Source: an uncultured bacterium
Lineage (GTDB): Bacteria; Omnitrophota; Omnitrophia; Omnitrophales; Aquincolibacteriaceae
NCBI GenBank assembly: GCA_964445745.1
Contig: CAYULU010000005.1
Coordinates: 211 to 64,210 of the forward strand
Direction: 5' to 3'
Length of the DNA stretch: 64,000 bases
Program-made: the position numbers and the translations under genes
In this document: in pieces, positions 1 through 13,759 of the stretch
How the letters are laid out: each line of letters opens with the position of its first letter
How positions within the stretch are numbered: the stretch's first letter is position 1
The notes under the pieces: model-generated
Seen by the model: only the letters and a program-made list of their open reading frames with translations
Database searches by the model: none
What the model was told of the DNA's origin: nothing

Positions 1-498
1 AACATACGCTACTACACCAGCGGATTTCTTGAAAACGTGCCCCTTCGCACACTGAAATTGCGTCCTCTTTATAAGTCCGCCATATGGTCCAATCATGGTA
101 AGCCCGGTTCCTTCCAACTGCTTTATCATCCATTCTCGGTTTCTTACTGATGTTAATGGTGCTTTCGGAGCTCGTATGCCAGCTTTCTTTGCTGCGTCCA
201 AACCTGCCTCTACATATTCCCATTCTAGATTAACAACTTCAACTCCTCCTAAAAACGGAATGTCTGCCAAAGGCGTTGCTCCCCAAAAAGCAGCTTCGGC
301 TAAATAGGGATCAGGAACCTCAATGTATGTCTTGAGTTTCCATTTCTGCCCGGTTTCTTTGACAACCTTGCCAGCATGTTCCTCGTAATTTCTATTATGC
401 TGAGCCAGCCTTTTTTCCGGCTTAAGAACGGTTACTCCAATCTTTACCAGATTGGGGTCAGAGGGGTGCACCAATACATATAGATAGCCTGGCTTCAT
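1..498 (-). CDS. GIY-YIG/T5orf172-like domain protein; C-terminal part lies outside the window, 166 N-terminal codons present
   Basis: My own minus-strand translation from the ATG at 498-496 gives MKPGYLYVLVHPSDPNLVKIGVTVLKPEKRLAQHNRNYEEHAGK...QFQCAKGHVFKK. The frame stays open to position 1, so it is absent from the ORF track (no stop in the window). The N-terminal GYLYV..KIG.T...R..QHN pattern is typical of T5orf172/GIY-YIG-superfamily modules. Confidence 0.55.
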   Translation of the reverse strand, partial: MKPGYLYVLVHPSDPNLVKIGVTVLKPEKRLAQHNRNYEEHAGKVVKETGQKWKLKTYIEVPDPYLAEAAFWGATPLADIPFLGGVEVVNLEWEYVEAGLDAAKKAGIRAPKAPLTSVRNREWMIKQLEGTGLTMIGPYGGLIKRTQFQCAKGHVFKKSAGVVAYV

Positions 499-534
499 CT
501 CGCTCTTTAATACCTTGCCGAATTAAGAGGAACT

Positions 535-608
535 CGCGCCCGGCAGGAATCGAACCTGCAACCCTTTGCTCCGAAGGCAAATGCTCTATCCAATTGAGCT
601 ACGGGCGC
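535..608 (-). tRNA. tRNA-Arg (anticodon TCG)
   Basis: The reverse complement folds by hand as a 74-nt cloverleaf: GCGCCCG TA GCTC AATTGGATA GAGC A TTTGC CTTCGGA GCAAA GGGTT GCAGG TTCGATT CCTGC CGGGCGC G. CCA is not encoded. Confidence 0.9.
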
Positions 609-610
609 AT
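570..610. repeat. att-type direct repeat, copy 1 (inside the intact tRNA-Arg; covers the tRNA 5' end through the anticodon loop plus 2 nt upstream)
   Basis: The 41 bp tccgaaggcaaatgctctatccaattgagctacgggcgcat recur at 6247-6287 with one mismatch (a580 versus g6257). Confidence 0.8.
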
Positions 611-667
611 AATAAAATTTGGCAATAATTATAGAGTAGAAGCGGGAGAAAGACAGATAAATTCTGT

Positions 668-1747
668 TTAATTACAGGAGGCAGGTTCAGGAACTTCAGG
701 AGCAGTCTGGACGGCCTTTTTATTGACCTCTGGGTTCGAAGTAGGTTCGCATGTGAGAATGGCATCAAGAGACTTAACGGCATTCACCTGAAGCTTTTTT
801 GAAGTATGGGCATAGATCATAGTGGTTTTTATATCTGAATGACCGAGAATCTCCTTTATTGTGATCAGGTCCGTGCCTTGTATGTTCAATTGTGTGGCGC
901 AGGTATGCCTCAAATCATGGAAGCGGAAATCCTTAATCCCTGCGGCTTTCAATGCGGCCATAAAACGTCGTCTAACGTCCCTCCACGGATCTCCGTTTCG
1001 ATTGATAAAGACGTAAGGGCAATCAGGCTGTTTGCGAATACTCATCAAGGCCTGCCGGGCCTGCTCATTCATCGGGACTTCTCTTTTCTTTCCGCTTTTG
1101 GTAACGAGTAAATGGATGATGCCTTGCTTGAAGTCGATATCTTGCCATTTCAAATTAAGCAATTCGCCTCTTCTCATTCCAGTACATATTGCAATGATAA
1201 TGAGAGGTTTAATTTCATCTGGTGCACTTTGAATCAGCTTCACAATTTCTTCCTTATCAAGAAATCTGATCTTGTGGTTTTCTTCCTTGAAGAAATTGAC
1301 ATCATTAACCGGATTTGTGCCATCAAACTCTTTCCACTTGATGGCCTTGTTGAAGATGGCCTTGAGGCAGGTCAACGCTCTGTTGGCTGTGGCAGGGCAA
1401 ACCTTTTCCTTGAGCCGTTCAGCCTTGAACCGTTCGATCATTACTGGCGTAATCTCATGCAGGTACTTACCAGCAAAATGTCTCTTCAAGATTTCTACCT
1501 GACCAACAGCCGCAATGGATCGGTGGTTGACCTTGCAGTGGAGGTTAAGATATCGATCCGCAAAATCCTCAAAGCGAACCTGCTTGGTTTTTTTGACATC
1601 CAAGAACCTGTTCTCGGCTATCTCGGTCTGGATCTTCGCCCAAGCACTGTCTGCAAGGGCTTTGTATGGTCCTACCTTCTTGCGGTATCTGTGGCCATTG
1701 AAGCGGTAATCGAGCCTGTAATAGCCATTTTTGTAAACAACACCCAT
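668..1747 (-). CDS. int: Tyrosine recombinase / phage-type integrase
   Basis: 359 aa. Catalytic motifs are visible: TGMRRGEL (Arg), HDLRHTCAT (His-x-x-Arg) and GHSDIKTTMIYAH (His, Tyr). It lies adjacent to the tRNA-Arg. Confidence 0.9.
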   Translation of the reverse strand: MGVVYKNGYYRLDYRFNGHRYRKKVGPYKALADSAWAKIQTEIAENRFLDVKKTKQVRFEDFADRYLNLHCKVNHRSIAAVGQVEILKRHFAGKYLHEITPVMIERFKAERLKEKVCPATANRALTCLKAIFNKAIKWKEFDGTNPVNDVNFFKEENHKIRFLDKEEIVKLIQSAPDEIKPLIIIAICTGMRRGELLNLKWQDIDFKQGIIHLLVTKSGKKREVPMNEQARQALMSIRKQPDCPYVFINRNGDPWRDVRRRFMAALKAAGIKDFRFHDLRHTCATQLNIQGTDLITIKEILGHSDIKTTMIYAHTSKKLQVNAVKSLDAILTCEPTSNPEVNKKAVQTAPEVPEPASCN

Positions 1748-1782
1748 AAGGACCTCCTTTCTCTTGCCTTTAAGGCAAAGGA

Positions 1783-2034
1783 TTATATGAGACTGTTTTT
1801 CTCATCTAAATGAAAACCTTGAGAAACCGGAACGGCTTGTTTTTTGGTCCACACCTCGATTTGTCGAAGGTCAAACCTGACCGCCCTTCCAAAGCGGTAG
1901 CAGGGTATCTTACCCATATGAACCCATGCCCGGATGGTGGGCTCCGACAGGCACAGATACACTGCCACCTCCTTGGAGGTCAGGAACCTCTTATAGGGCT
2001 CCTTTTTGCTGTCAATACTGTCAATGGTGTCCAT
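1783..2034 (-). CDS. Excisionase/AlpA-like helix-turn-helix DNA-binding protein
   Basis: 83 aa. LTSKEVAVYLCLSEPTIRAWVHMGKIPCYRFGRAVRFDLRQIEVW matches the excisionase-family HTH pattern. It is located directly upstream of int on the same strand. Confidence 0.7.
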   Translation of the reverse strand: MDTIDSIDSKKEPYKRFLTSKEVAVYLCLSEPTIRAWVHMGKIPCYRFGRAVRFDLRQIEVWTKKQAVPVSQGFHLDEKNSLI

Positions 2035-2064
2035 TGGCGTAGACCAGAAGTGACAGAATTGACA

Positions 2065-3468
2065 CTAATTAGGGGTGGGGTATCCAAACCTTTCTTGGGT
2101 TAATGCAATGCTTTCAGAACTGACCCATCTACCTCTTTGGATTTTTGCACCAATCACAACTCGATCTTCCTTTCCAATTTGAAGATGCTCAAGCATTCGG
2201 CCAACACTCTGCTTAGAAAGATATGGCGGGATTGTTGCATTCACATCAGGATTTCTATCAACCCCTATTTCTTCAAGATAGGCTTTGTAGATGCTCTCGA
2301 AGGAATAAAACCGTTCATCGCCGGCCACCTTCTGAGCATCATCTTCTGAGAGACTGCCTACAACAGAAAATAGTCTGTAGAGATTGTCATTCTCAAAAGA
2401 TAGTTCTTTGTTTTCTTTGATCTTCTCCTTGGCCAATTGAAGCATTTCAGCAAAGCAGTCCTTGCCTAGCAAATGGGCCATAGCCAAAATGGGAAGCCAG
2501 TTAGACTGGTCATAGCCATAAATGCCCAGGTCCATTTTCTTTATGGTCTTCTTTGCCTCACGAACTTCCTTCCAATGATTCATAAGGTAAACATAGAGCT
2601 TGTCCCTCAGTATTGTGATTTTGGAAGATTGAGGGTTTACTTCTCTTTGCGCTTGTTTCTTTTGAGAGGGTGTTAAAATCAGCTTGATCGAACGGTTCAG
2701 TAATGCTGTTTCCTTGATCCCTCGAATATTGGCTATCATCTTGGGAGAATAAAGCTGGAACTCATCATGGACAAAACTGTTGTCCTTCAACTGCTTCATC
2801 CGGATTACACTTGCCCCCGGCTTATACCCACCCAATAAAAAATTTATCTGACTACAGTGGTCGCCGAATCCTGAGATTCTTTCATTTTCATCCAAAATAA
2901 GAACCCCCCTAGAGGCATGGATCATTCGGAACAAACCAGAATCTGATATGTTCGCCATTAGTTTTCCATTGAAGCATATAGGAGCTGCCAATTCTCCAGT
3001 CTTTGATTTTCCAGAGCCGGAAGACCCATTCAGAAAAATAATGGGGTATCCTTTAAACAATGGGAAAAAATAGGTCCCTATAATCCACAGAGGGATAAGT
3101 GTGTATAATCGACTATCTGCATAATCCAGGTAGTGCTTATACAAATCCTCTAACTCGTTGAAAACTTCCTTGAGAGTAAAATCTTCGTTCGAATTCAACC
3201 AAGTGTTAATACTGTCTCTGCTCCATCTGCCCTCAACATACACACCGGAAATTTCAGAAAGCAACCCACGCTCTTCCAATGCTTCCTTGCTAAGAACAAA
3301 ATGGTCTTTGTCGCTAACAATAACCCAATATTTTTTCCCTATTCCTTCTGCTGTTTTTGTGTGCAAACTTGCAGTCACATACGCCTTTCCACCTTTAAAA
3401 TCCAATGCCGGATGGAAATCCTTAACTTCCCCCTCAAAAATTTCTGCTTCTGCTTTATGGCTTTTCAT
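2065..3468 (-). CDS. P-loop NTPase, replication/mobilisation-type protein of integrative elements (family not resolved)
   Basis: 467 aa. Walker A is LNGSSGSGKSKTGE and the Walker B-like motif is GVLILDENE. Its position after xis/int is typical of element replication or primase-helicase-type proteins. Confidence 0.55.
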   Translation of the reverse strand: MKSHKAEAEIFEGEVKDFHPALDFKGGKAYVTASLHTKTAEGIGKKYWVIVSDKDHFVLSKEALEERGLLSEISGVYVEGRWSRDSINTWLNSNEDFTLKEVFNELEDLYKHYLDYADSRLYTLIPLWIIGTYFFPLFKGYPIIFLNGSSGSGKSKTGELAAPICFNGKLMANISDSGLFRMIHASRGVLILDENERISGFGDHCSQINFLLGGYKPGASVIRMKQLKDNSFVHDEFQLYSPKMIANIRGIKETALLNRSIKLILTPSQKKQAQREVNPQSSKITILRDKLYVYLMNHWKEVREAKKTIKKMDLGIYGYDQSNWLPILAMAHLLGKDCFAEMLQLAKEKIKENKELSFENDNLYRLFSVVGSLSEDDAQKVAGDERFYSFESIYKAYLEEIGVDRNPDVNATIPPYLSKQSVGRMLEHLQIGKEDRVVIGAKIQRGRWVSSESIALTQERFGYPTPN

Positions 3469-4018
3469 ATCTACCCCCTCAGAGTTGTTGAAAGTTGGAC
3501 TGCGAATTTCAACAAAAAAGGCCCTATCGGGATGATGGTTCCCAATAAGGCCTAAAAATACAAAAGGAGAGCCGAGATGGGTATCATCCCGTGTGTCACT
3601 CTCCTTTCTCTGAGTTTTAAAGAACTTTCGTCTTGGTAGGAATTATTTCTCCTGAATCACATTTCGTTCAGGCGACGTTTTCTGTAAGTTCTTCGACACT
3701 AAACTTTGTTAAGTTTTTAAAGAGCATTTGTTTGTTGTGGTAACAATTATAACATGGGGTCATATATGACCAGTCAAGGGCTTTTTGAAATAAAACTTAA
3801 AATTTTTTTGGCAATGGTGGTTTAAAGCAGAGTGTTTTTGGCCGTTAGACGGCTGCGTATGCCAGCCTTGAGGGTGGAATGGGATAATCTGCCTGTATGT
3901 GGTTTTCGCTGGCTATAACTGGTCTTTTTGTAAAAAGAAGAGCTGGAATTGCCTTTCTTTTACCGTTTTTGGGCAAACAAGCCTTTTTTATCCCGTTTTT
4001 GGGGATAGCAATAGCCCT

Positions 4019-4351
4019 TTAATGGCCCATATTTAACTTAACATTTCCACCATAATCCTCGGGTCTGCCATAGAAGGAAAGCTTATCATTATCAAATACA
4101 ACCAGATAATAGATCTCATCGTTCCATCCTTGGGCATGAACTGAGAGGCGGTCTACTACCACGTAATTCCAAACTTCACGGATAACATTGTTCTCTTTAG
4201 AAACGGAAGCCTTTCTTAAATTTTTTTCCCCAAGAATCCTAAAGACTTCTGCCTTAGGCATATCTATTTGAACCTGATCAAGATTACCTCTAGACATGGA
4301 TGCGCAACCACTTAACCCAAAACATAACAATAAAACTATTAGATTTTTCAC
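4019..4351 (-). CDS. Small lipoprotein, BamE/SmpA-OmlA-like
   Basis: 110 aa. The signal peptide carries a lipobox (LLLCFGLSGC). The mature part begins with the ..MPKAEVFRILGE.. pattern seen in BamE-like lipoproteins. Confidence 0.55.
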   Translation of the reverse strand: MKNLIVLLLCFGLSGCASMSRGNLDQVQIDMPKAEVFRILGEKNLRKASVSKENNVIREVWNYVVVDRLSVHAQGWNDEIYYLVVFDNDKLSFYGRPEDYGGNVKLNMGH

Positions 4352-4363
4352 GTGGCCTCCTTT

Positions 4364-4753
4364 TTAAAAACCGCCTTCCCAAGACTCCTTTTCCCAGTCA
4401 ATTGCCTTCAAATGTTTTTGTGCTTCGATATAGGGATCTGCATCAGTTTCTTGAAGCCATACCAAATTTAAGTAATTTCCACAGAATGGACAACACGTTC
4501 CAATGTGTGCATAAACGACATCTTCCGGGAGAGGTTCCTTAAGGTCTAATTCCGTTATACCTATCATGTGAACCGGCCTATCATTCCCGAAATACCTTCT
4601 GCAATGTTCCGGAATTCTTCTTTCAATGATATTTTTTTTGGCAACAATTCCTCCACAAGGAGAGCCGTCGTGTGTGCCCTCTATATGAATGTTAAAAATA
4701 TAAATACTTTCACCTTTATGGCTGCCAATAAGCTTACGCATTTTCGTTACCAC
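4364..4753 (-). CDS. Hypothetical Cys/His-rich protein (island cargo)
   Basis: 129 aa ORF. It overlaps the upstream gene by 20 nt, which implies an operon. It contains SPCGG...HC...CCPFCG, a possible zinc-binding arrangement. I recognise no family. Confidence 0.45.
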   Translation of the reverse strand: MVTKMRKLIGSHKGESIYIFNIHIEGTHDGSPCGGIVAKKNIIERRIPEHCRRYFGNDRPVHMIGITELDLKEPLPEDVVYAHIGTCCPFCGNYLNLVWLQETDADPYIEAQKHLKAIDWEKESWEGGF

Positions 4754-5237
4754 CCCTTACCTCTTTAAACTGCTCTTTTGTTTGGCCAATGATTTCAACG
4801 GCATTCGTTCCACCAGATAAGCATAAAGCTTTAAAGTCGTACTCCTTGAGATTGTTTTTTGCTTTCCAAGCCAAAAATTCTTCATGAGAGGCGGGATGAA
4901 GAGGTGAATTCCCATTCAAGCTTATCAAAGGGGTCTGTGGTTCGATTTCTTTTAGATAGGCTGTCGCATCTTCTTTTTTAAAAAAATGGGCAACGTGAAA
5001 AAGAGGATAACGAGTGCAATTTCTGTAGAATGCAACGCACCAGATGTGATCATCTGGAGGGTGCTCATGGTAAATCGTTGTCCAAATTACACCATTTTCA
5101 TCAGGCTTGGTTTTAACCGTTGCCGGACAAAGGCATAAAAGAGAAAGGCGATCGTCATAATATTCCTGCCCTCGGAAACAGATTGTCCGCCTCCTGTTAC
5201 CATCCCCAGATATGTTTTCTTCTCGTGATTTTAGCAA
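4734..5237 (-). CDS. Hypothetical protein (island cargo)
   Basis: 167 aa ORF on the same strand, overlapping the downstream gene. I recognise no family. Confidence 0.45.
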   Translation of the reverse strand: MLKSREENISGDGNRRRTICFRGQEYYDDRLSLLCLCPATVKTKPDENGVIWTTIYHEHPPDDHIWCVAFYRNCTRYPLFHVAHFFKKEDATAYLKEIEPQTPLISLNGNSPLHPASHEEFLAWKAKNNLKEYDFKALCLSGGTNAVEIIGQTKEQFKEVRGGNENA

Positions 5238-5272
5238 ATAGCCTTTTTTATCCAGTTTTTAGGGATAAATCC

Positions 5273-5740
5273 TTATTGATTTTTCTCGCCTTCCTTCAAA
5301 AAATCTTCCACAGAAACAGACTCACTTTTTTCTATAGCCGCTTTATGAGCAGATAGGGCGGCAATCCGTCCTTTTTCGAGTTTTGCCTCATAGAACAAAG
5401 AAGCTACCGTTGCCCAAAAACCAACCCCACCACTCAAAAGTTCCTTTTCTCTCGGATCTTCTTCTTTCCAATCTTTCATCTTTTTTTTCATCTTCCCATA
5501 CTCCAAGGGGCTAGAGGCGAAAGACACCTTCGCAATTCTGGCTATGCCTTTTTCCTCCTTACCTATTCGGTCCTCATCCTCCACAGCCCAAACGTTCCCG
5601 GTTATACTGTTATATTTGTGCGACAAAACTCCTCCTGCGGTAACCGTGTATTGCCATTTTGGGGCTACCACATAGAACACTACTCCGGCAAATAGAATCA
5701 GAGACGCTCCCAAGATAAACCGTTTTACCCATTCATTCAT
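5273..5740 (-). CDS. Hypothetical membrane-anchored protein (island cargo)
   Basis: The ORF track gives 5273-5770 with a GTG start. The internal ATG at 5740 is preceded by aaaaagggag (an RBS) and yields MNEWVKRFILGASLILFAGVVFYVV, an N-terminal TM helix. Confidence 0.5.
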   Translation of the reverse strand: MNEWVKRFILGASLILFAGVVFYVVAPKWQYTVTAGGVLSHKYNSITGNVWAVEDEDRIGKEEKGIARIAKVSFASSPLEYGKMKKKMKDWKEEDPREKELLSGGVGFWATVASLFYEAKLEKGRIAALSAHKAAIEKSESVSVEDFLKEGEKNQ

Positions 5741-5847
5741 GATGGCTCCCTTTTTTGAGAATTCTATCACCGCCTATAATCGGCGTAAATGAAAACACCG
5801 ACCATCTGCGGTGTTAAGAAAAGGCCATAAACCCCACAATATGGCCC

Positions 5848-6060
5848 ATGGCAGATATCAATCGACAGTTCGGAAAGAGGTTGAGGCAATTAAGGTTGAA
5901 GCATAAGCTTACCCAGGAACAATTAGCCCAGCTTTCTGAAGTGGATTACAAATACATCCAGCGCCTTGAGGGAAGTACGCCTTCTTCTCCTACCCTAAAT
6001 ATCCTCGAAAAGATTTCCAAGGTCTTCAAACTCAGTATTTCCAAGCTACTGGACCTCTAA
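5848..6060 (+). CDS. XRE/Cro-CI family helix-turn-helix transcriptional regulator
   Basis: 70 aa. FGKRLRQLRLKHKLTQEQLAQLSEVDYKYIQRLEG is the classic HTH_3 pattern. It is divergent from the cargo operon. Confidence 0.8.
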   Translation: MADINRQFGKRLRQLRLKHKLTQEQLAQLSEVDYKYIQRLEGSTPSSPTLNILEKISKVFKLSISKLLDL

Positions 6061-6246
6061 TAACTCCTATCCTTTGAGGCCGGATAATACCCTTCGTGTC
6101 CAATAAGTGTCCAAAACGGAGGTGCGATCAAATCTCTGCATCACACACCATATCACTCAATATCAAAGGCTCGCTAGGAGGCAATAAGGGGTGGAAAAGC
6201 GATTTGCGAGGAATTACAATGGGTTAGGAATTTTCGATTCGAAGTA

Positions 6247-6287
6247 TCCGAAGGCAGATGCTCTATCCAATTGAGCTACGGGCGCAT
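6247..6287. repeat. att-type direct repeat, copy 2 (orphan copy of the tRNA-Arg 5' half)
   Basis: 40/41 identical to 570-610. The sequence to its left (6225-6246) cannot complete an anticodon stem, T-arm or acceptor stem, so this is a fragment and not a tRNA. Confidence 0.8.
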
Positions 6288-6426
6288 TTTAAATTTTCAG
6301 ATCTTCATTGAAATGGAATCTTCTAAGTAGCCGTCAGAAATTATGATGAGGAAAACTCACTACCCGCTGGTACCTAGGATGGAGATCGTATCCTGAAACT
6401 TCACTTTAAGGCAAGAAAGAATTTTT

Positions 6427-7254
6427 GTGAATTTTTTTAAAAACAAATACACAGTTATCTTGAGCCTTATTTTTTTTATTTGCGGATGTGCCACAACGGC
6501 GGAGCGGGGGATTGACGTGGAGGCGGCGAGTCAGGGTCCGTCGAATTATGATGAGTATGCCGTGGGGGCGAAAATTCATCAGGAGATCCTCTCGCGGTTT
6601 CATCCTTACACGGATCCCAAAGTTGTGAAGTATGTGAGCCATGTTGGGACGAACCTGGCAGCTCATGCCAGCCGGAAAGACCTTCGCTATCAATATACCA
6701 TTCTCTATGATGAGAAGATTTATGCGACATCAGCGCCCGGCGGACACATCTATGTGACGACCGGAATGCTCAATTTCTTGCAAAATGAGGCGGAGCTTGC
6801 CGCTATTCTTGCGCATGAGATCGGAAGGCTTCAATACAAGGATCCTCGGTTTACGCAAACCGATGATGTGCTGAATGTTGCCACGCAGGCAGGTTCCCAG
6901 ATTGCGCCGATGTTTGGTCCTGTCGGATCGCTTGCCGCTCTTGGGCTCGTCTTGCTCAAGGCGTATGTTGACAGTACGCAGTTGACGCCTGATGAATTGC
7001 TTATCGAAAGTGACCGGCGGGCGATGGATTATTTGCTTAAATCGGGTTATGACCCCCAGTCGCTGATGGATACCCTCGAATATTTTTTACGGGCAGGGGA
7101 GAAATCTGTGCCGCTATTTTATGATTATTATCAATCACGGCCGATTACGGAATCGAGAGTTTTGGCCGTCCGTAAAGGATTTCAAAAACTTCCGCTTTCT
7201 GATAAAGAGCTCAAAACTCGACCGCTCGAATACCAAGAGGTAACAAAAGGGTGA
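6427..7254 (+). CDS. M48-family (BepA/Ste24-like) peptidase homologue, lipoprotein, with a degenerate HExxH motif
   Basis: 275 aa. The lipobox is LIFFICGC. The M48-like core is GGHIYVTTGMLNFLQNEAELAAILAHEIGRLQYKD. The motif reads H-E-I-G-R (codons 6814-6828), with Arg where the second zinc-binding His is expected. Confidence 0.65.
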   Translation: MNFFKNKYTVILSLIFFICGCATTAERGIDVEAASQGPSNYDEYAVGAKIHQEILSRFHPYTDPKVVKYVSHVGTNLAAHASRKDLRYQYTILYDEKIYATSAPGGHIYVTTGMLNFLQNEAELAAILAHEIGRLQYKDPRFTQTDDVLNVATQAGSQIAPMFGPVGSLAALGLVLLKAYVDSTQLTPDELLIESDRRAMDYLLKSGYDPQSLMDTLEYFLRAGEKSVPLFYDYYQSRPITESRVLAVRKGFQKLPLSDKELKTRPLEYQEVTKG

Positions 7255-7288
7255 GAGAGATTTACAAGAAAGCATACTAAAAAACTGA

Positions 7289-7351
7289 TGCGGCTAGAGG
7301 GAGTTGAACCCCACCCCTTGCGGGACAAGATCCTAAGCCTTGCGTGTCTGC
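7289..7351 (-). pseudogene. tRNA-Leu(TAG)-like fragment lacking the 5' acceptor arm and a proper D-arm
   Basis: The reverse complement GCAGACACGCAAGGCTTAGGATCTTGTCCCGCAAGGGGTGGGGTTCAACTCCCTCTAGCCGCA parallels the intact tRNA-Leu from the D-loop to the 3' end. No sequence able to pair with TAGCCGC exists upstream, and the T-stem has lost one G. Confidence 0.5.
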
Positions 7352-7379: not shown

Positions 7380-7461
7380 TGCGGCCGGAGGGACTTGAAC
7401 CCCCATCCCTTACGGGACAAGATCCTAAGTCTTGCGCGTCTGCCAATTTCGCCACGGCCGC
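7380..7461 (-). tRNA. tRNA-Leu (anticodon TAG), class II with long variable arm
   Basis: Reverse complement: GCGGCCG TG GCG AAATTGGCAGA CGC G CAAGA CTTAGGA TCTTG TCCCGTAAGGGAT GGGGG TTCAAGT CCCTC CGGCCGC A. Confidence 0.9.
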
Positions 7462-9214: not shown

Positions 9215-11776
9215 TTGTTTGCGGAAGAGGGACCGGATTTTGTGACAGAAGGATCTGTTTTTGCTAAACCATCACCTGTCGGGAAAACGAAGACATGGAA
9301 AAAAAGTTTTCGTTTTTTTCTTTTTCTTTTTTTTGCGCTCCTCATCTATGTTGGTTTTGTCTGGTTTCAGGCCAATCGGCTGTTAAGATCCGAAAAAACC
9401 CAGAACCATTTTATTGAGAAAATTCAACTTGTTTCCGGGGGGGTCTTGACTCACGGAGGTTTAGAAGTTGGATTTTCCCCAAATCCGACTCTAACGTTTC
9501 TGAATCCGAAGCTTACTTTCGCCAATCATCCTGCGGTCATCGAATCTGAAAAACTCTGTCTCGATTTTAATATCATTTCAATTGCCTGGGGCCGTACGGA
9601 ACCCTCCGAGATTTATGCTTTTGGTGTGAAATTTAACACTTCAATTCCGGCCTTTCCGGGTTTAGAAGAGATCCAGCTACAAAACGCTGTTCTTAAGATG
9701 GGCGCCATTCGCTCTGGTCTTGCGATTCCCGTTCAGATGTCAGGCGATGTGGGCAGTCAACCGCAGGCATTTGATGTGAAGGGACATTTCGTCATCCCTT
9801 CACTGGAAAGACTTGAATGGGACCAGGTCAGCATGCGACTTCTCTTCAATTTCAAGGATCTTCCGATTGCCAGTGCCGTCGCTCATGCTTCGGAACGCCC
9901 TCCTTTTTTCATTTTTAAGGGTGGTTTTTTAAACGGATCTTTCGAAACAAAAAAACAGAAGGGATCCGGAGAACTGGATTTTGCGGGTACCGGTAAAGTT
10001 CGCAAAGTGAGTTACGAAATTCGCAGTGAAAAGGATATAACAGTACCGCTTGCTTTCGATGTGGAGATGGATCTTTCAGGCGTCTGGAATGCTGTTCAGG
10101 AAGAGTTGAAGATCAATAAATCTCAATTTCGGCTTCCTTTTGGATCTCTCGAAACCAACGGGAGTTTAAAGTTGGGAACCGGGGAAATCCCGAGTTTCTA
10201 CTTTTTCGCGAAAGATCTGGTTCTTGAAAAGATGGTTGCTTATTGGCCCGGCATTGAAAATATTCTTCCTTTTAAAATCGGTTTTTCCGGTGCGAGTCAA
10301 TGGATCTTAAATCTCGAAGGTACACTTGACCACCTGCGAATCCATCTTAATGTTGATTTTAAGCAAACTCTTTTCACGTATGGCCAGTATTTTACGAAAC
10401 CCAAGGATATTCCGCTTAACGCGACTTTCGACTATCTCATTCGAAAGGGTTCGACGCTATCAGGAGATTTTTCAGTCCGATTCCAGGAAATGTCTCTCAA
10501 GGGAAATTTGACGGATCTGGACATGGGGACGGGCACGGGGCAGTTAAACCTTCTCACCAACAAATTTTCGATGGCGGGGTGGGAATCGTATATTCCGATG
10601 CTTCAAGGTTTCAAGATTGACGGAGACGCCAAGATCCTTGCGAACTGGAAGGGAGACCTTCGAGCCTTGGAAAAAGCTGATAAAATTTTGCATGTTACGA
10701 TCGGAAAAGGATCTTGGGCGGACGTAGACGGAAAGGGGATCCGGAATGCAGATCTTTCTCTTGATTATAGCCCGCTGATGCTCGAAGGTCGGCAGATGAA
10801 GTTTGATCTGGGGAAATCACCTGTTGTTGCGGATCTCAAGATAGCGGGGACGGGGGAGCAGAAAGAATCTTTTTTCCATCTTTCAGCAGGCGAATTAAAT
10901 CTTAATGAAGCCTGGGATTCTGTAAGAGCGCTTTTCCAGCGCAAAACCGAGACTGCCCCCAAAGATTTTTGGGATGATATCAAGACGACAGTCCATGGCC
11001 TTTTCCCCTCGGGGCAGACGGTCCAGAATTTTTCAGTTGATATTTCAAACACGGACCGGATTTGGAATATATCGAAACTCCACGCTCAGATTTATAGCGG
11101 AGTGCTGGATCTTTCCGGTTGGGTGGATCCAACGATGCAACCGGCTCAGTACCAATCTGAGGGCGAAATCAAAGGTCTTAATCTTGACCTCTTTTTGAAT
11201 CGGGCGGGTTTGGAAAAACAATGGTTTGGGGGTTCAACGATCCTGAAGTTTTCCGTCAATGGAAGCGGCTGGGGGAGAGACGCGTGGACCTCTTCGCTTA
11301 AAGGACGGGGACAATTAAATCTTACCGAAGGGCAGTTCGGTTTTATGGATCCTATTGGCGTCTTATCGTCCATCGAGCCCTTGAGCTCCCTTGGATCCAG
11401 AATGAAGTCGCCCAACTCCTTTAACGAGCTTGATTTTAATTGGGTCCTTGCCAACGGGAAAGTGGAGACGGAAGATTTTCTCATCAAAAGTTCGGATTAT
11501 GTGGTGGACGGTGAAGGAACGCTTGGTTTTGATGGTTTGCTAAACCTGCGATGGGACGTATTTCTTCCGACTTCTCTGGCGGCGGAAATTTTCCCTGGGA
11601 TGGCAGAGACTTTTCACAAGGAAACCAGCGCCCATCTGGGGCCGATCACATTGCTCATCTCAGGATTGGCCGATTCTCCTCACATTAAACCTGATCCGGC
11701 CCGGGCGGAAGAGTTGATACAAATGATCCGCGAGGAAAAAGCTCGATCGCTGATTTACGAGCTTGTGCTGGATTAA
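9215..11776 (+). CDS. AsmA-family protein (inner-membrane-anchored, envelope lipid/OMP assembly family)
   Basis: 853 aa. It has one N-terminal TM helix (FRFFLFLFFALLIYVGFVWF), a long beta-rich body and an AsmA-like C-terminal pattern (DFLIKSSDYVVDGEGTLGFDGLLNLRWDVFLP). The start is non-ATG (TTG at 9215) and therefore uncertain. Confidence 0.55.
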   Translation: MFAEEGPDFVTEGSVFAKPSPVGKTKTWKKSFRFFLFLFFALLIYVGFVWFQANRLLRSEKTQNHFIEKIQLVSGGVLTHGGLEVGFSPNPTLTFLNPKLTFANHPAVIESEKLCLDFNIISIAWGRTEPSEIYAFGVKFNTSIPAFPGLEEIQLQNAVLKMGAIRSGLAIPVQMSGDVGSQPQAFDVKGHFVIPSLERLEWDQVSMRLLFNFKDLPIASAVAHASERPPFFIFKGGFLNGSFETKKQKGSGELDFAGTGKVRKVSYEIRSEKDITVPLAFDVEMDLSGVWNAVQEELKINKSQFRLPFGSLETNGSLKLGTGEIPSFYFFAKDLVLEKMVAYWPGIENILPFKIGFSGASQWILNLEGTLDHLRIHLNVDFKQTLFTYGQYFTKPKDIPLNATFDYLIRKGSTLSGDFSVRFQEMSLKGNLTDLDMGTGTGQLNLLTNKFSMAGWESYIPMLQGFKIDGDAKILANWKGDLRALEKADKILHVTIGKGSWADVDGKGIRNADLSLDYSPLMLEGRQMKFDLGKSPVVADLKIAGTGEQKESFFHLSAGELNLNEAWDSVRALFQRKTETAPKDFWDDIKTTVHGLFPSGQTVQNFSVDISNTDRIWNISKLHAQIYSGVLDLSGWVDPTMQPAQYQSEGEIKGLNLDLFLNRAGLEKQWFGGSTILKFSVNGSGWGRDAWTSSLKGRGQLNLTEGQFGFMDPIGVLSSIEPLSSLGSRMKSPNSFNELDFNWVLANGKVETEDFLIKSSDYVVDGEGTLGFDGLLNLRWDVFLPTSLAAEIFPGMAETFHKETSAHLGPITLLISGLADSPHIKPDPARAEELIQMIREEKARSLIYELVLD

Positions 11777-12733: not shown

Positions 12734-13759
12734 ATGTTGAACTGTGCTGTATTAGGCGCGACGGGATATACAGGATCTGAACTCACCAGGTTGTTGCTTG
12801 CCCACCGAAGTGTCCGAATCACTCATCTGACAACACGGCAGGAAAAACATATCCCGCTGGCCGAGGTTTTGCCATCGATCCCCAAGGACGTGGACCTTCA
12901 TATTACCCCTTATGATTTTGAAGATGTCAAAAAGAAGGCCGACCTTGTGTTTCTTTGCTTACCTCATACAGAAGCCATGACGACGGGAGATCTTTTCTTT
13001 CAGGCCGGTAAAATCGTGATCGATCTTTCCGCGGATTTCCGGCTGAAAAATCCGGCCCTTTATCCCAAGTGGTACGGGGTCGAGCATGCCTTTCCCGCGA
13101 GACTCCGACAGGCAGTTTACGGTTTGTGCGAAGTGAACCGGGAAAAAATCAAAAAGGCGGATTTGATCGCTAATCCCGGGTGTTATCCGACGGGGCCGTC
13201 CCTTGCCCTTTGGCCGCTTTTTAAGAAAAAAATGATCCGAACGGATTCCGTCATTATTAATGCTGCGTCGGGGGTTACTGGTGCTGGAAGAAAACTGGTG
13301 ACGGCGACTCAGTATTGTGAGGTGAATGAAAATTACAATGCCTACAGAGTGAACCGGCACCAACACATTCCCGAGATTGAACAGAATTGTTCCGAAGCCG
13401 CGGGCAGGGAAGTGCTCATTACTTTTGTCCCGCATCTTCTGCCGGTTTCACGAGGTATCCTTTCGACGATCTACGTCGAACCTTCCCAAAAAACATTGAC
13501 TGAGGAATCTATCCGAAAGGTGCTGGAGGCAGTTTACTCCCAGGACCCTTTTGTCAGGATTAAGCCCGCGGGGCAATTCCCGAGTCTCAAGGATGTCCGA
13601 GGGACGAACTTTTGCGACATTGGTGTTTCCCTGGATTCCCGCACGGGGCGACTGGTGATCCTTACGGCCATTGATAATCTTTTGAAAGGTGCTTCAGGCC
13701 AGGCAGTTCAAAACATGAACATTCGTTGTGGTTTCCCCGAGGGAGCGGGGCTTGTCTGA
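12734..13759 (+). CDS. argC: N-acetyl-gamma-glutamyl-phosphate reductase
   Basis: MLNCAVLGATGYTGSELTRLL...NPGCYPTG (active-site Cys region). The ATG at 12734 is preceded by aaaaggaga. The longer ORF-track start at 12632 lies inside the promoter. Confidence 0.9.
   Translation: MLNCAVLGATGYTGSELTRLLLAHRSVRITHLTTRQEKHIPLAEVLPSIPKDVDLHITPYDFEDVKKKADLVFLCLPHTEAMTTGDLFFQAGKIVIDLSADFRLKNPALYPKWYGVEHAFPARLRQAVYGLCEVNREKIKKADLIANPGCYPTGPSLALWPLFKKKMIRTDSVIINAASGVTGAGRKLVTATQYCEVNENYNAYRVNRHQHIPEIEQNCSEAAGREVLITFVPHLLPVSRGILSTIYVEPSQKTLTEESIRKVLEAVYSQDPFVRIKPAGQFPSLKDVRGTNFCDIGVSLDSRTGRLVILTAIDNLLKGASGQAVQNMNIRCGFPEGAGLV

Follow-up and report, generated by a model that had tools for sequence, protein, structure and literature searches.

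The window analysed here, 64,000 nucleotides of contig CAYULU010000005.1 from an uncultured bacterium of the phylum Omnitrophota, begins inside a small integrative element that is associated with an arginine tRNA gene. A complete tRNA-Arg(TCG) lies on the minus strand close to the window start, with a T5orf172 gene at its 3′ end and a tyrosine integrase gene (int) upstream of it, on the same strand. Further upstream, beyond int and several other genes, there is an orphan copy of the 5′ part of tRNA-Arg, and then the gene for an M48 peptidase (coordinates in Table 1). An earlier note on this DNA interpreted the orphan copy as one arm of an attachment-site (att) repeat, so that the element would duplicate the 5′ half of its target tRNA gene rather than the usual 3′ half. 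From the comparisons below, it is highly probable that the locus is built differently: a replicative element of about 6.4 kb occupies the anticodon loop of the host tRNA-Arg(TCG), the host gene is split, and the element has brought along a complete cognate tRNA of its own.

A repeat search of the window gives a two-copy direct repeat at 570-620 and 6247-6297 with 92% identity (family D2), in which the core, 570-610 against 6247-6287, is identical at 40 of 41 positions. The repeat was described correctly in the earlier note: it starts 2 nt upstream of the tRNA and runs over tRNA positions 1 to 38, to where the anticodon loop ends, and the orphan lies upstream of the tRNA gene on the far side of the island, with int intervening. 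A match of this quality within 6 kb far exceeds what chance would give, as both copies consist of tRNA-Arg sequence. The single mismatch (580 in one copy, 6257 in the other) falls in pair 28:42 of the anticodon stem. It was thought to break a base pair in the orphan, which is not the case, as the gene that the orphan comes from has C28-G42 and the complete tRNA has U28-A42, a compensatory change. No other tRNA-Arg is called by ARAGORN in the window.

The state of the site before insertion can be read from relatives. Using the peptidase to scan one-genome-per-species contigs, 13 Omnitrophota loci were obtained, and in 9 of them a tRNA-Arg(TCG) closely precedes the peptidase gene and no island separates the two. 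The closest of these empty sites is L001 (UBA1443), in which the peptidase has 93% protein identity and an intact tRNA-Arg(TCG) at 9789-9862 precedes the peptidase gene by 139 nt, the same distance as that between the orphan copy and the peptidase gene in the window. Window positions 6247-7351 are collinear with L001 9824-10928 in BLASTN, and the orphan is identical to the native tRNA gene of L001 at 41 of 41 positions. Since homology with L001 begins exactly at 6247, the break is at the first base of the anticodon loop. The host upstream region (6288-6426) is still joined to the displaced 5′ part, and no tRNA is called by ARAGORN at this left junction (attL). To the left of its tRNA, L001 has a gene that reads, by eye, as a putative ROK-kinase. 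The window has the T5orf172 gene in this place, and therefore the DNA at the 3′ end of the complete tRNA is not host flank.

The right junction (attR) lies outside the window and was found by exact look-up of the integrase, which gave two Logan contigs, L016 and L017, assembled from runs SRR11845624 and SRR11845625. Over window 1-6276, L016 and the window agree at 100%, and L016 carries a further 185 nt beyond position 1 of the window. The sequence that follows the T5orf172 gene on L016 is ...CAAATAGAGCAGAATA-CTTCGGA-GCAGAGGGTTGCAGG; at the junction itself, the element arm on this side (P arm) ends in ...ATAGAGCAGAATA-CTTCGGA-GCAGAGGGTTGCAGG, with the bases AGAATA directly before the core. GCAGAGGGTTGCAGG belongs to the 3′ half of the host tRNA: it consists of a host-type 3′ anticodon stem and variable region, with G42 as in L001 and not the A42 of the element. 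When the empty site (attB), attL, attR and the element tRNA are set side by side, the element is placed within the anticodon loop with a common core of 7 bp, CTTCGGA, and the P arm at attR is seen to have no acceptor and D arm. Past the 3′ end of the complete tRNA, there are thus the T5orf172 gene, about 130 nt of the arm of the element's own site (attP), and then a second host junction. The whole element measures about 6416 bp, with about 162 nt and the second 7-bp core beyond window position 1; its far end and the host 3′ half lie off the window by about 165 nt, about 0.8 kb beyond the complete tRNA. This tRNA, flanked by T5orf172 and an attP arm and separate from the host 3′ half, is not an attachment junction. 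If the host halves are rejoined, the gene is accepted by ARAGORN as a valid tRNA. Compared with the host gene, the element tRNA differs at 4 of 74 positions, namely C28 to U, G42 to A and two bases in the T-loop. Because the differences are at 28:42 and in the T-loop, both of its halves are foreign.

These comparisons bear out that an integrative element sits at tRNA-Arg, through the empty site and both junctions, and they change the meaning of the repeat. L001 is an empty site with junctions other than those of a 41-bp att duplication, and the sequence common to attP and attB is limited to the 7-bp anticodon loop. The 41-bp repeat is the leftover half of the host gene, which resembles the element's own tRNA.

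The positions of arm-type sites agree with the longer element. In the motif scan, TTGGACA occurs only 5 times in the window. Two TTGGACAC sites form the P′ arm on the attL side (L016 163/174), and a matching pair is located 116-127 nt inside attR (L016 6313/6324). The pairs are about 105-150 nt from the core on either side, with an 11-nt spacing in both arms, and they enclose the 6.4 kb in full instead of the inner 5.7 kb. A lambda-like attP has this order (arms, core, arms). The last 210 nt or so of int and the spacer between int and the element tRNA have no TTGGACAC site with up to 1 mismatch. Paired TTGGACAC sites also occur in five related elements introduced below (L018, L022, L028, L112 and L113), and the position is kept across 8 elements. 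At the attP junction of an excised 6.4-kb circle, ...GAGCAGAATA-CTTCGGA-TACTTCGAATCG would be expected. The corresponding 21-mer, GCAGAATACTTCGGATACTTC, has 0 matches in IMG/VR. Its 2 matches in JGI metagenomes were set aside as chance, being in unrelated high-GC coding DNA with no flank similarity.

The element tRNA, located between int and the T5orf172 gene, starts 59 nt after the int stop codon and has the same isotype and anticodon as the disrupted host gene. It is preceded by a -10-like box, TATAAT, and a similar box is found 18-26 nt upstream of the element tRNA in L018, L026, L022, L027 and L021. A promoter and terminator scan of 400-900 gave nothing. The proposal that the element supplies the 5′ half and the promoter of the working tRNA-Arg was sound, and it holds for the entire gene, as the tRNA is wholly element-borne. 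It is presumably expressed and needed.

From this anatomy, integration would proceed as follows. attP and attB would recombine at the shared 7-bp CTTCGGA, which is the usual overlap size for tyrosine recombinases, with the anticodon stem of attB serving as inverted core sites and the paired TTGGACAC sites on each side of attP as arm sites. The reaction is probably catalysed by Int and the putative excisionase (Xis), and the element probably still moves. Since attP has no usable tRNA half, integration would split the host gene, so that neither junction is a tRNA. The host 5′ part would remain beside the peptidase gene, and the 3′ part would be moved to about 165 nt past the window start. The complete tRNA-Arg(TCG) of the element, downstream of int and with its own -10 box, would then compensate for the split gene. 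Whether the split host halves work as a split tRNA was also considered; this was rejected, as nothing supports it, and we know of no bacterial split-tRNA pathway. As entry routes of the complete tRNA, imprecise excision and deletion within a tandem array were considered, and no scheme is singled out by the data.

The same arrangement is found around related integrases. The integrase has 3149 homologues at E < 1e-20, and the hits with a source name are mostly from Omnitrophota; 12 integrase contexts were examined. In L018 (77% integrase identity), the tRNA-Arg(TCG) 5′ half of a different host is joined to a homologous element end. This element carries int, a complete tRNA-Arg(TCG) and two unrelated cargo genes, and ends in ...GCAGAATA-CTTCGGA followed by the host 3′ half. 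In L021 (59%), both junctions are on one 85-kb contig: a host tRNA-Arg(TCT) 5′ half, an element with restriction-modification cargo and a complete tRNA-Arg(TCT) clearly different from that of the host, and attR with the 3′ half. L022 (59%) has int, tRNA-Arg(TCT), a DUF2321 gene and attR, and then host genes. In these three elements, too, the element tRNA matches the disrupted gene in isotype and anticodon. Contigs L026 and L027 break within the tRNA that follows int, and L030 and L111 have int and then a tRNA gene, with the far ends beyond range.

Four more distant relatives behave in another way. In L028 (tRNA-Thr, 39/39), L029 (tRNA-Gln, 41/41), L112 (tRNA-Arg-CCG, 40/41) and L113 (tRNA-Met, 40/40), with integrases of 49-50% identity, a 5′-half repeat is found at the far end, and the complete tRNA is directly followed by host genes. 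No displaced 3′ half is present in any of the four. In L028 and L113, the arm sites are within the 3′ coding end of int and encode MDTIW. Thus the reversed geometry of the earlier note, with a 5′ half supplied by the element at the attachment junction, exists in these four relatives and does not apply to the window. In L028 (10001-11386), 24 nt separate the stop codon of the integrase gene from tRNA-Thr, which is the first gene of a host Thr-Tyr-Gly tRNA cluster. As the element supplies the 5′ half of this tRNA-Thr, transcription of the cluster must start inside the element, within or before int.

Some irregularities were seen on these contigs. The split halves in L018 (1-38 and 8624-8653) mismatch in the anticodon stem (TCAGC in the 5′ half, GCAGA in the 3′ half, A29/A41), which could mean that the unused halves have decayed or that the assembly mixes strains. 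L021 has an older truncated tRNA-Arg(TCT) 5′ fragment (3877-3913) upstream of its present element, after which come an integrase fragment of 90 aa and a Fic gene (4137-5536); this stretch is what is left of a previous tandem insertion. Exactly 30 nt of L016 precede the point where the sequences diverge at attL, and exactly 30 nt of the host side of attR are present at the end of L018. In assemblies with k=31, such ends are expected if empty and occupied sites coexist in the samples, which hints that the elements are polymorphic in their populations. The other end of L016, at 22 nt, breaks this pattern.

Three other explanations of the locus can be weighed against a single element that splits its target. 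First, the 6.4 kb may be a composite of two insertions that is not mobile as a unit, namely a first, 5′-side element at 610-6246, which rebuilt the tRNA, and a fragment of later or earlier date in the same loop that lacks an integrase and comprises the 3′ half of a tRNA, T5orf172 and the relic of an int end, so that the complete tRNA would be made of two foreign halves. Indeed, the P arm resembles a relic int 3′ end with a decayed tRNA 5′ half, possibly the stump of a second element, tandem relics are known at such sites (L021 3877-3913), and the cargo between the tRNA and attR differs among elements. However, the same order is found in four elements with integrase identities of 59-77%, in different hosts and with differently sequenced tRNA-Arg genes of the isoacceptors TCG and TCT. 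Recurrence in four elements means that the order has been propagated as a unit. In addition, perfect pairs of arm sites flank the whole 6.4 kb rather than the inner 5.7 kb, and U28-A42 is coherent within the complete tRNA. We therefore regard a composite as unlikely.

Second, in the model of the earlier note, attP carries the tRNA 5′ half, the tRNA at 535-608 is attR, and the repeat bounds a 5.7-kb island at 610-6246. This geometry fits the window on its own, it is exactly that of the distant integrase relatives L028, L029, L112 and L113, and 159 islands with a 5′ fragment are recorded in Islander (PMC4383910). At this locus, however, the 3′ half of the complete tRNA is not host-type (A42 and a TTCGATT T-loop), its flank is T5orf172 and not the ROK-kinase-like gene of the empty site, the host 3′ half is a separate piece about 0.8 kb away, and no arm-type sites are located upstream of the tRNA at 535-608. 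The model is very improbable here. Third, a chimera of the element or of its tRNA junctions, made in metagenome assembly or binning, is hardly credible: all sequences are metagenome assemblies and contigs do break at tRNA repeats, but the 64,349-nt contig of the NCBI metagenome-assembled genome and Logan contigs from two runs agree 100% over 6.1-6.3 kb, the junctions share less than a 31-mer with any alternative path, which excludes de Bruijn chimeras, L018 and L020 show the same attR independently, and both ends of L021 are on one long contig.

The preferred reading, an element of about 6.4 kb that splits the host gene and carries a cognate tRNA, builds on the observed anatomy, the empty site, both junctions, the pairs of arm sites, and recurrence of the layout in related elements of different hosts. 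Several points weigh against it. Of the host 3′ half, no more than 22 nt are visible in this genome, and these lie on a Logan contig, outside the window. Neither an excised circle nor an attP junction was found in IMG/VR and the JGI metagenomes searched. A strict sigma-70 scan gave no full promoter for the element tRNA. The tRNA count covers the 64-kb window, and further copies of host tRNA-Arg(TCG) are possible. Lastly, attR of L021 is called by ARAGORN as a 73-nt tRNA-Arg (13239-13311) with a defective D arm, because the P arm retains a matching acceptor strand, and this makes non-reconstitution of the tRNA less clear-cut in that element.

The P arm holds a possible clue to the origin of this mode. 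Eight elements, four that split the tRNA gene and four that rebuild it, were anchored on the core and aligned (alignment A1). The P arms of the four splitting elements are collinear with the int 3′ end and the tRNA 5′ half of the four rebuilding ones, in the common order of arm-site pair, a GTTGTTGTAACTCATTGA-like block, tRNA 5′ half and core. In L113 and L112, the stop region of int makes up the GTTGTTGTAACTCATTGA-like block, to which TTCTTGTAACTCATTTAG corresponds in the element of the window. The tRNA 5′ half in the P arm is intact in the rebuilding elements and decayed in the splitting ones: in the element of the window, only ATAGAGCA is left of it, in register, and in L021 the acceptor strand also persists. 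At the 3′ ends of their working int genes, L018, L022 and the element of the window no longer have the arm sites, and L021 keeps a degenerate pair. To judge from this alignment, the P arm probably descends from a module of int 3′ end and tRNA 5′ half like that of the relatives that rebuild the tRNA from the 5′ side. These patterns fit a duplication of the module and a subsequent division of labour.

A possible history, to which we give an even chance, is that this large Omnitrophota integrase lineage is 5′-sided throughout, with int preceding the tRNA in the same orientation, and that the splitting mode arose by duplication of the module followed by division of labour. In the rebuilding elements, the element would supply the 5′ half and the promoter, sometimes for a whole host tRNA operon as in L028 (Thr-Tyr-Gly). 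After duplication, one copy would keep the integrase coding sequence and the complete tRNA, and the other would keep only the arm sites and the core and decay as a gene.

In classical integration into the anticodon loop of tRNA genes, as in P22, HP1 and L5, crossover occurs in the 7-nt loop and the anticodon stem serves as symmetric core-binding sites. attP carries the tRNA sequence from the loop to the 3′ end, and the gene is restored at attL. Integration in the anticodon loop is reportedly a sublocation class of its own in the 2002 work of Williams. The Omnitrophota element shares the crossover in the loop, but its attP has neither half in working form. A displaced 5′ fragment, as opposed to a 3′ fragment, was found in 159 of 3919 Islander islands, a minority class (PMC4383910). 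The distant relatives L028, L029, L112 and L113 belong to this class by their layout. The window looks like one of these islands, with a tRNA gene, a co-oriented 5′ fragment upstream and an integrase gene between. It differs in that no junction has produced the complete tRNA, a 3′ half has been displaced as well, and what the 5′ fragment matches is the element's tRNA.

The closest parallel is tRNA-dependent lysogeny of actinobacteriophages, known from Fionnbharth (K4), Cluster L, Gaia and Gordonia CQ2/DL phages (Guerrero-Bustamante and Hatfull, mBio 2024, PMC10865867). In this system, a tyrosine integrase uses an attB in a tRNA gene with a core of 8-17 bp, no tRNA is rebuilt, and the phage-borne cognate tRNA is required for survival of the lysogen, as shown genetically; pairs of arm-type sites flank the core, and close relatives rebuild the tRNA instead (PMC10865867). 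The Lactobacillus johnsonii prophage Lj965 is cited as a likely case (PMC10865867), and similar substitutions are reported for prophage-like sequences of Sinorhizobium (PMC11476347). The element in the window has the four defining features, that is, a tyrosine integrase, attB in a tRNA gene, a core that does not rebuild the tRNA and a cognate tRNA. It also shows features of a lambda-like heterobivalent system, with arm repeats on both sides of the core and a putative excisionase gene beside int, and its integrase has relatives that use the ordinary tRNA-rebuilding mode. The short core is 7 bp, against 8-17 bp in the phages. On the other hand, the carrier is not a temperate phage but a 6.4-kb element with Int, Xis, a replicative helicase and an XRE regulator. 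As it has no virion genes, the term lysogeny is not applicable. The host is an uncultured member of Omnitrophota, and the requirement for the tRNA, proven in the phages, is presumed here.

The arrangement is thus already known from some phages, and the Omnitrophota locus is a non-phage example. Disruption and replacement of a host tRNA have been demonstrated experimentally so far only in actinobacteriophages, and the present locus extends the strategy to a small replicative element in an uncultured phylum; current understanding is not overturned. In practical terms, a tRNA gene with a 5′ fragment upstream and an integrase between them need not bound an island. Islander-type logic and the earlier note both misplace the element end by 0.8 kb and misassign the tRNA. 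How the tRNA-dependent mode evolved from tRNA-rebuilding integration was left open for the phages (PMC10865867), and an integrase family that keeps both modes together with a relic attP arm bears directly on this question. If module duplication is the right explanation, these elements would be a mirror-image, non-viral counterpart of tRNA-dependent lysogeny with evolutionary intermediates preserved, and some of the 5′-fragment islands in databases would be misread split-tRNA insertions. A 7-bp core with a self-supplied tRNA makes a compact integration module.

The remaining genes are listed in Table 1. The putative excisionase gene is directly upstream of int. The integrase N-terminus gives a weak match to Arm-DNA-bind_2 (E 0.014), which at 15.8 bits falls short of the cut-off of 22. 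The 467-aa protein has no sequence matches in Pfam, PHROG, NCBIfam or PDB. Its homologues include proteins of 626-785 aa, four of which (782-785 aa) have Toprim_2 and one of which (636 aa) has Prim-Pol. Its AlphaFold2 model has a predicted local distance difference test (pLDDT) score of 83, and Foldseek relates it at probability 1.0 to MCM, the helicase region of NrS-1, PriRep1, SCCmec Cch and the SaPI5 primase-helicase. The four small open reading frames (ORFs) have no matches in Pfam, PHROG or NCBIfam. No virion, packaging or lysis genes are found in the 6.4 kb, where PHROG matches are confined to the integrase, excisionase, regulator and an endonuclease-like domain, and IMG/VR has no relative of the integrase above 38% identity. 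The most fitting description is that of a small replicative integrative element, either satellite-like or of the integrated-plasmid type. The element resembles PICI/SaPI- and SCCmec-type elements in its small size, its Int-Xis-regulator module and a helicase fold like those of the SaPI5 primase-helicase and SCCmec Cch. It differs from them in that there is no homology at the sequence level and no packaging or helper-interaction genes are recognised in it. The slot between the element tRNA and attR is occupied by T5orf172, DUF2321 or two unknown ORFs depending on the element, and appears to be a variable cargo position; in L021, a BglII/MT-A70 restriction-modification pair is located between int and the tRNA instead.

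Table 1. Features of the tRNA-Arg element and its right-hand neighbourhood, in window coordinates
Feature	Position	Strand	Basis
Visible part of the integrative element	1-6246	minus	Identity with L016; homology with L001 starts at 6247
T5orf172/GIY-YIG-like cargo gene, 175 aa	1-498, last 29 nt off window (full: L016 5779-6306)	minus	Pfam T5orf172 5.6e-06
Complete element-borne tRNA-Arg(TCG), probable replacement copy	535-608	minus	Rfam 72.5 bits; ARAGORN 534-609
TATAAT, -10-like box	628-633	minus	Comparison of upstream regions; 19 nt upstream of the first base of the element tRNA
Tyrosine integrase	668-1747	minus	Pfam Phage_integrase PF00589 5.7e-39, Int_N; phrog_1 integrase 1e-84
Excisionase-like HTH_17 protein, putative recombination directionality factor	1783-2034	minus	Pfam HTH_17 6.3e-11; PHROG excisionase
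Replicative helicase-like ATPase, 467 aa; Walker A GSGKS conserved	2065-3468	minus	Predicted fold
Four small ORFs	4019-4351, 4364-4753, 4734-5237, 5273-5770	minus	Same genes in L016 and L017
XRE-family HTH regulator, putative repressor	5848-6060	plus	Pfam HTH_3 2.8e-11; PHROG transcriptional repressors
P′ arm: two TTGGACAC arm-type sites 11 nt apart	6096-6114	minus	Motif scan; about 135-150 nt from the core
attL copy of the 7-bp common core, CTTCGGA, anticodon loop of tRNA-Arg(TCG)	6247-6253	minus	Comparison of attB, attL, attR and reconstructed attP
Displaced host tRNA-Arg 5′ part (positions 1-31) and 2 nt of native upstream flank	6254-6287	minus	Identity with L001
M48 peptidase, gene right of the element	6427-7254		

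A second tRNA fragment was observed in the neighbourhood. On the minus strand at 7289-7351, 28 nt downstream of an intact tRNA-Leu(TAG) gene (7380-7461), lies a diverged copy, 63 nt in length (about 88-91%), of this gene's 3′ part; the copy is not called as a tRNA by Rfam. The syntenic place in L001 has a single intact tRNA-Leu. The copy looks like the scar of a classical 3′-side integration that has been almost wholly deleted, or like a small tandem duplication.

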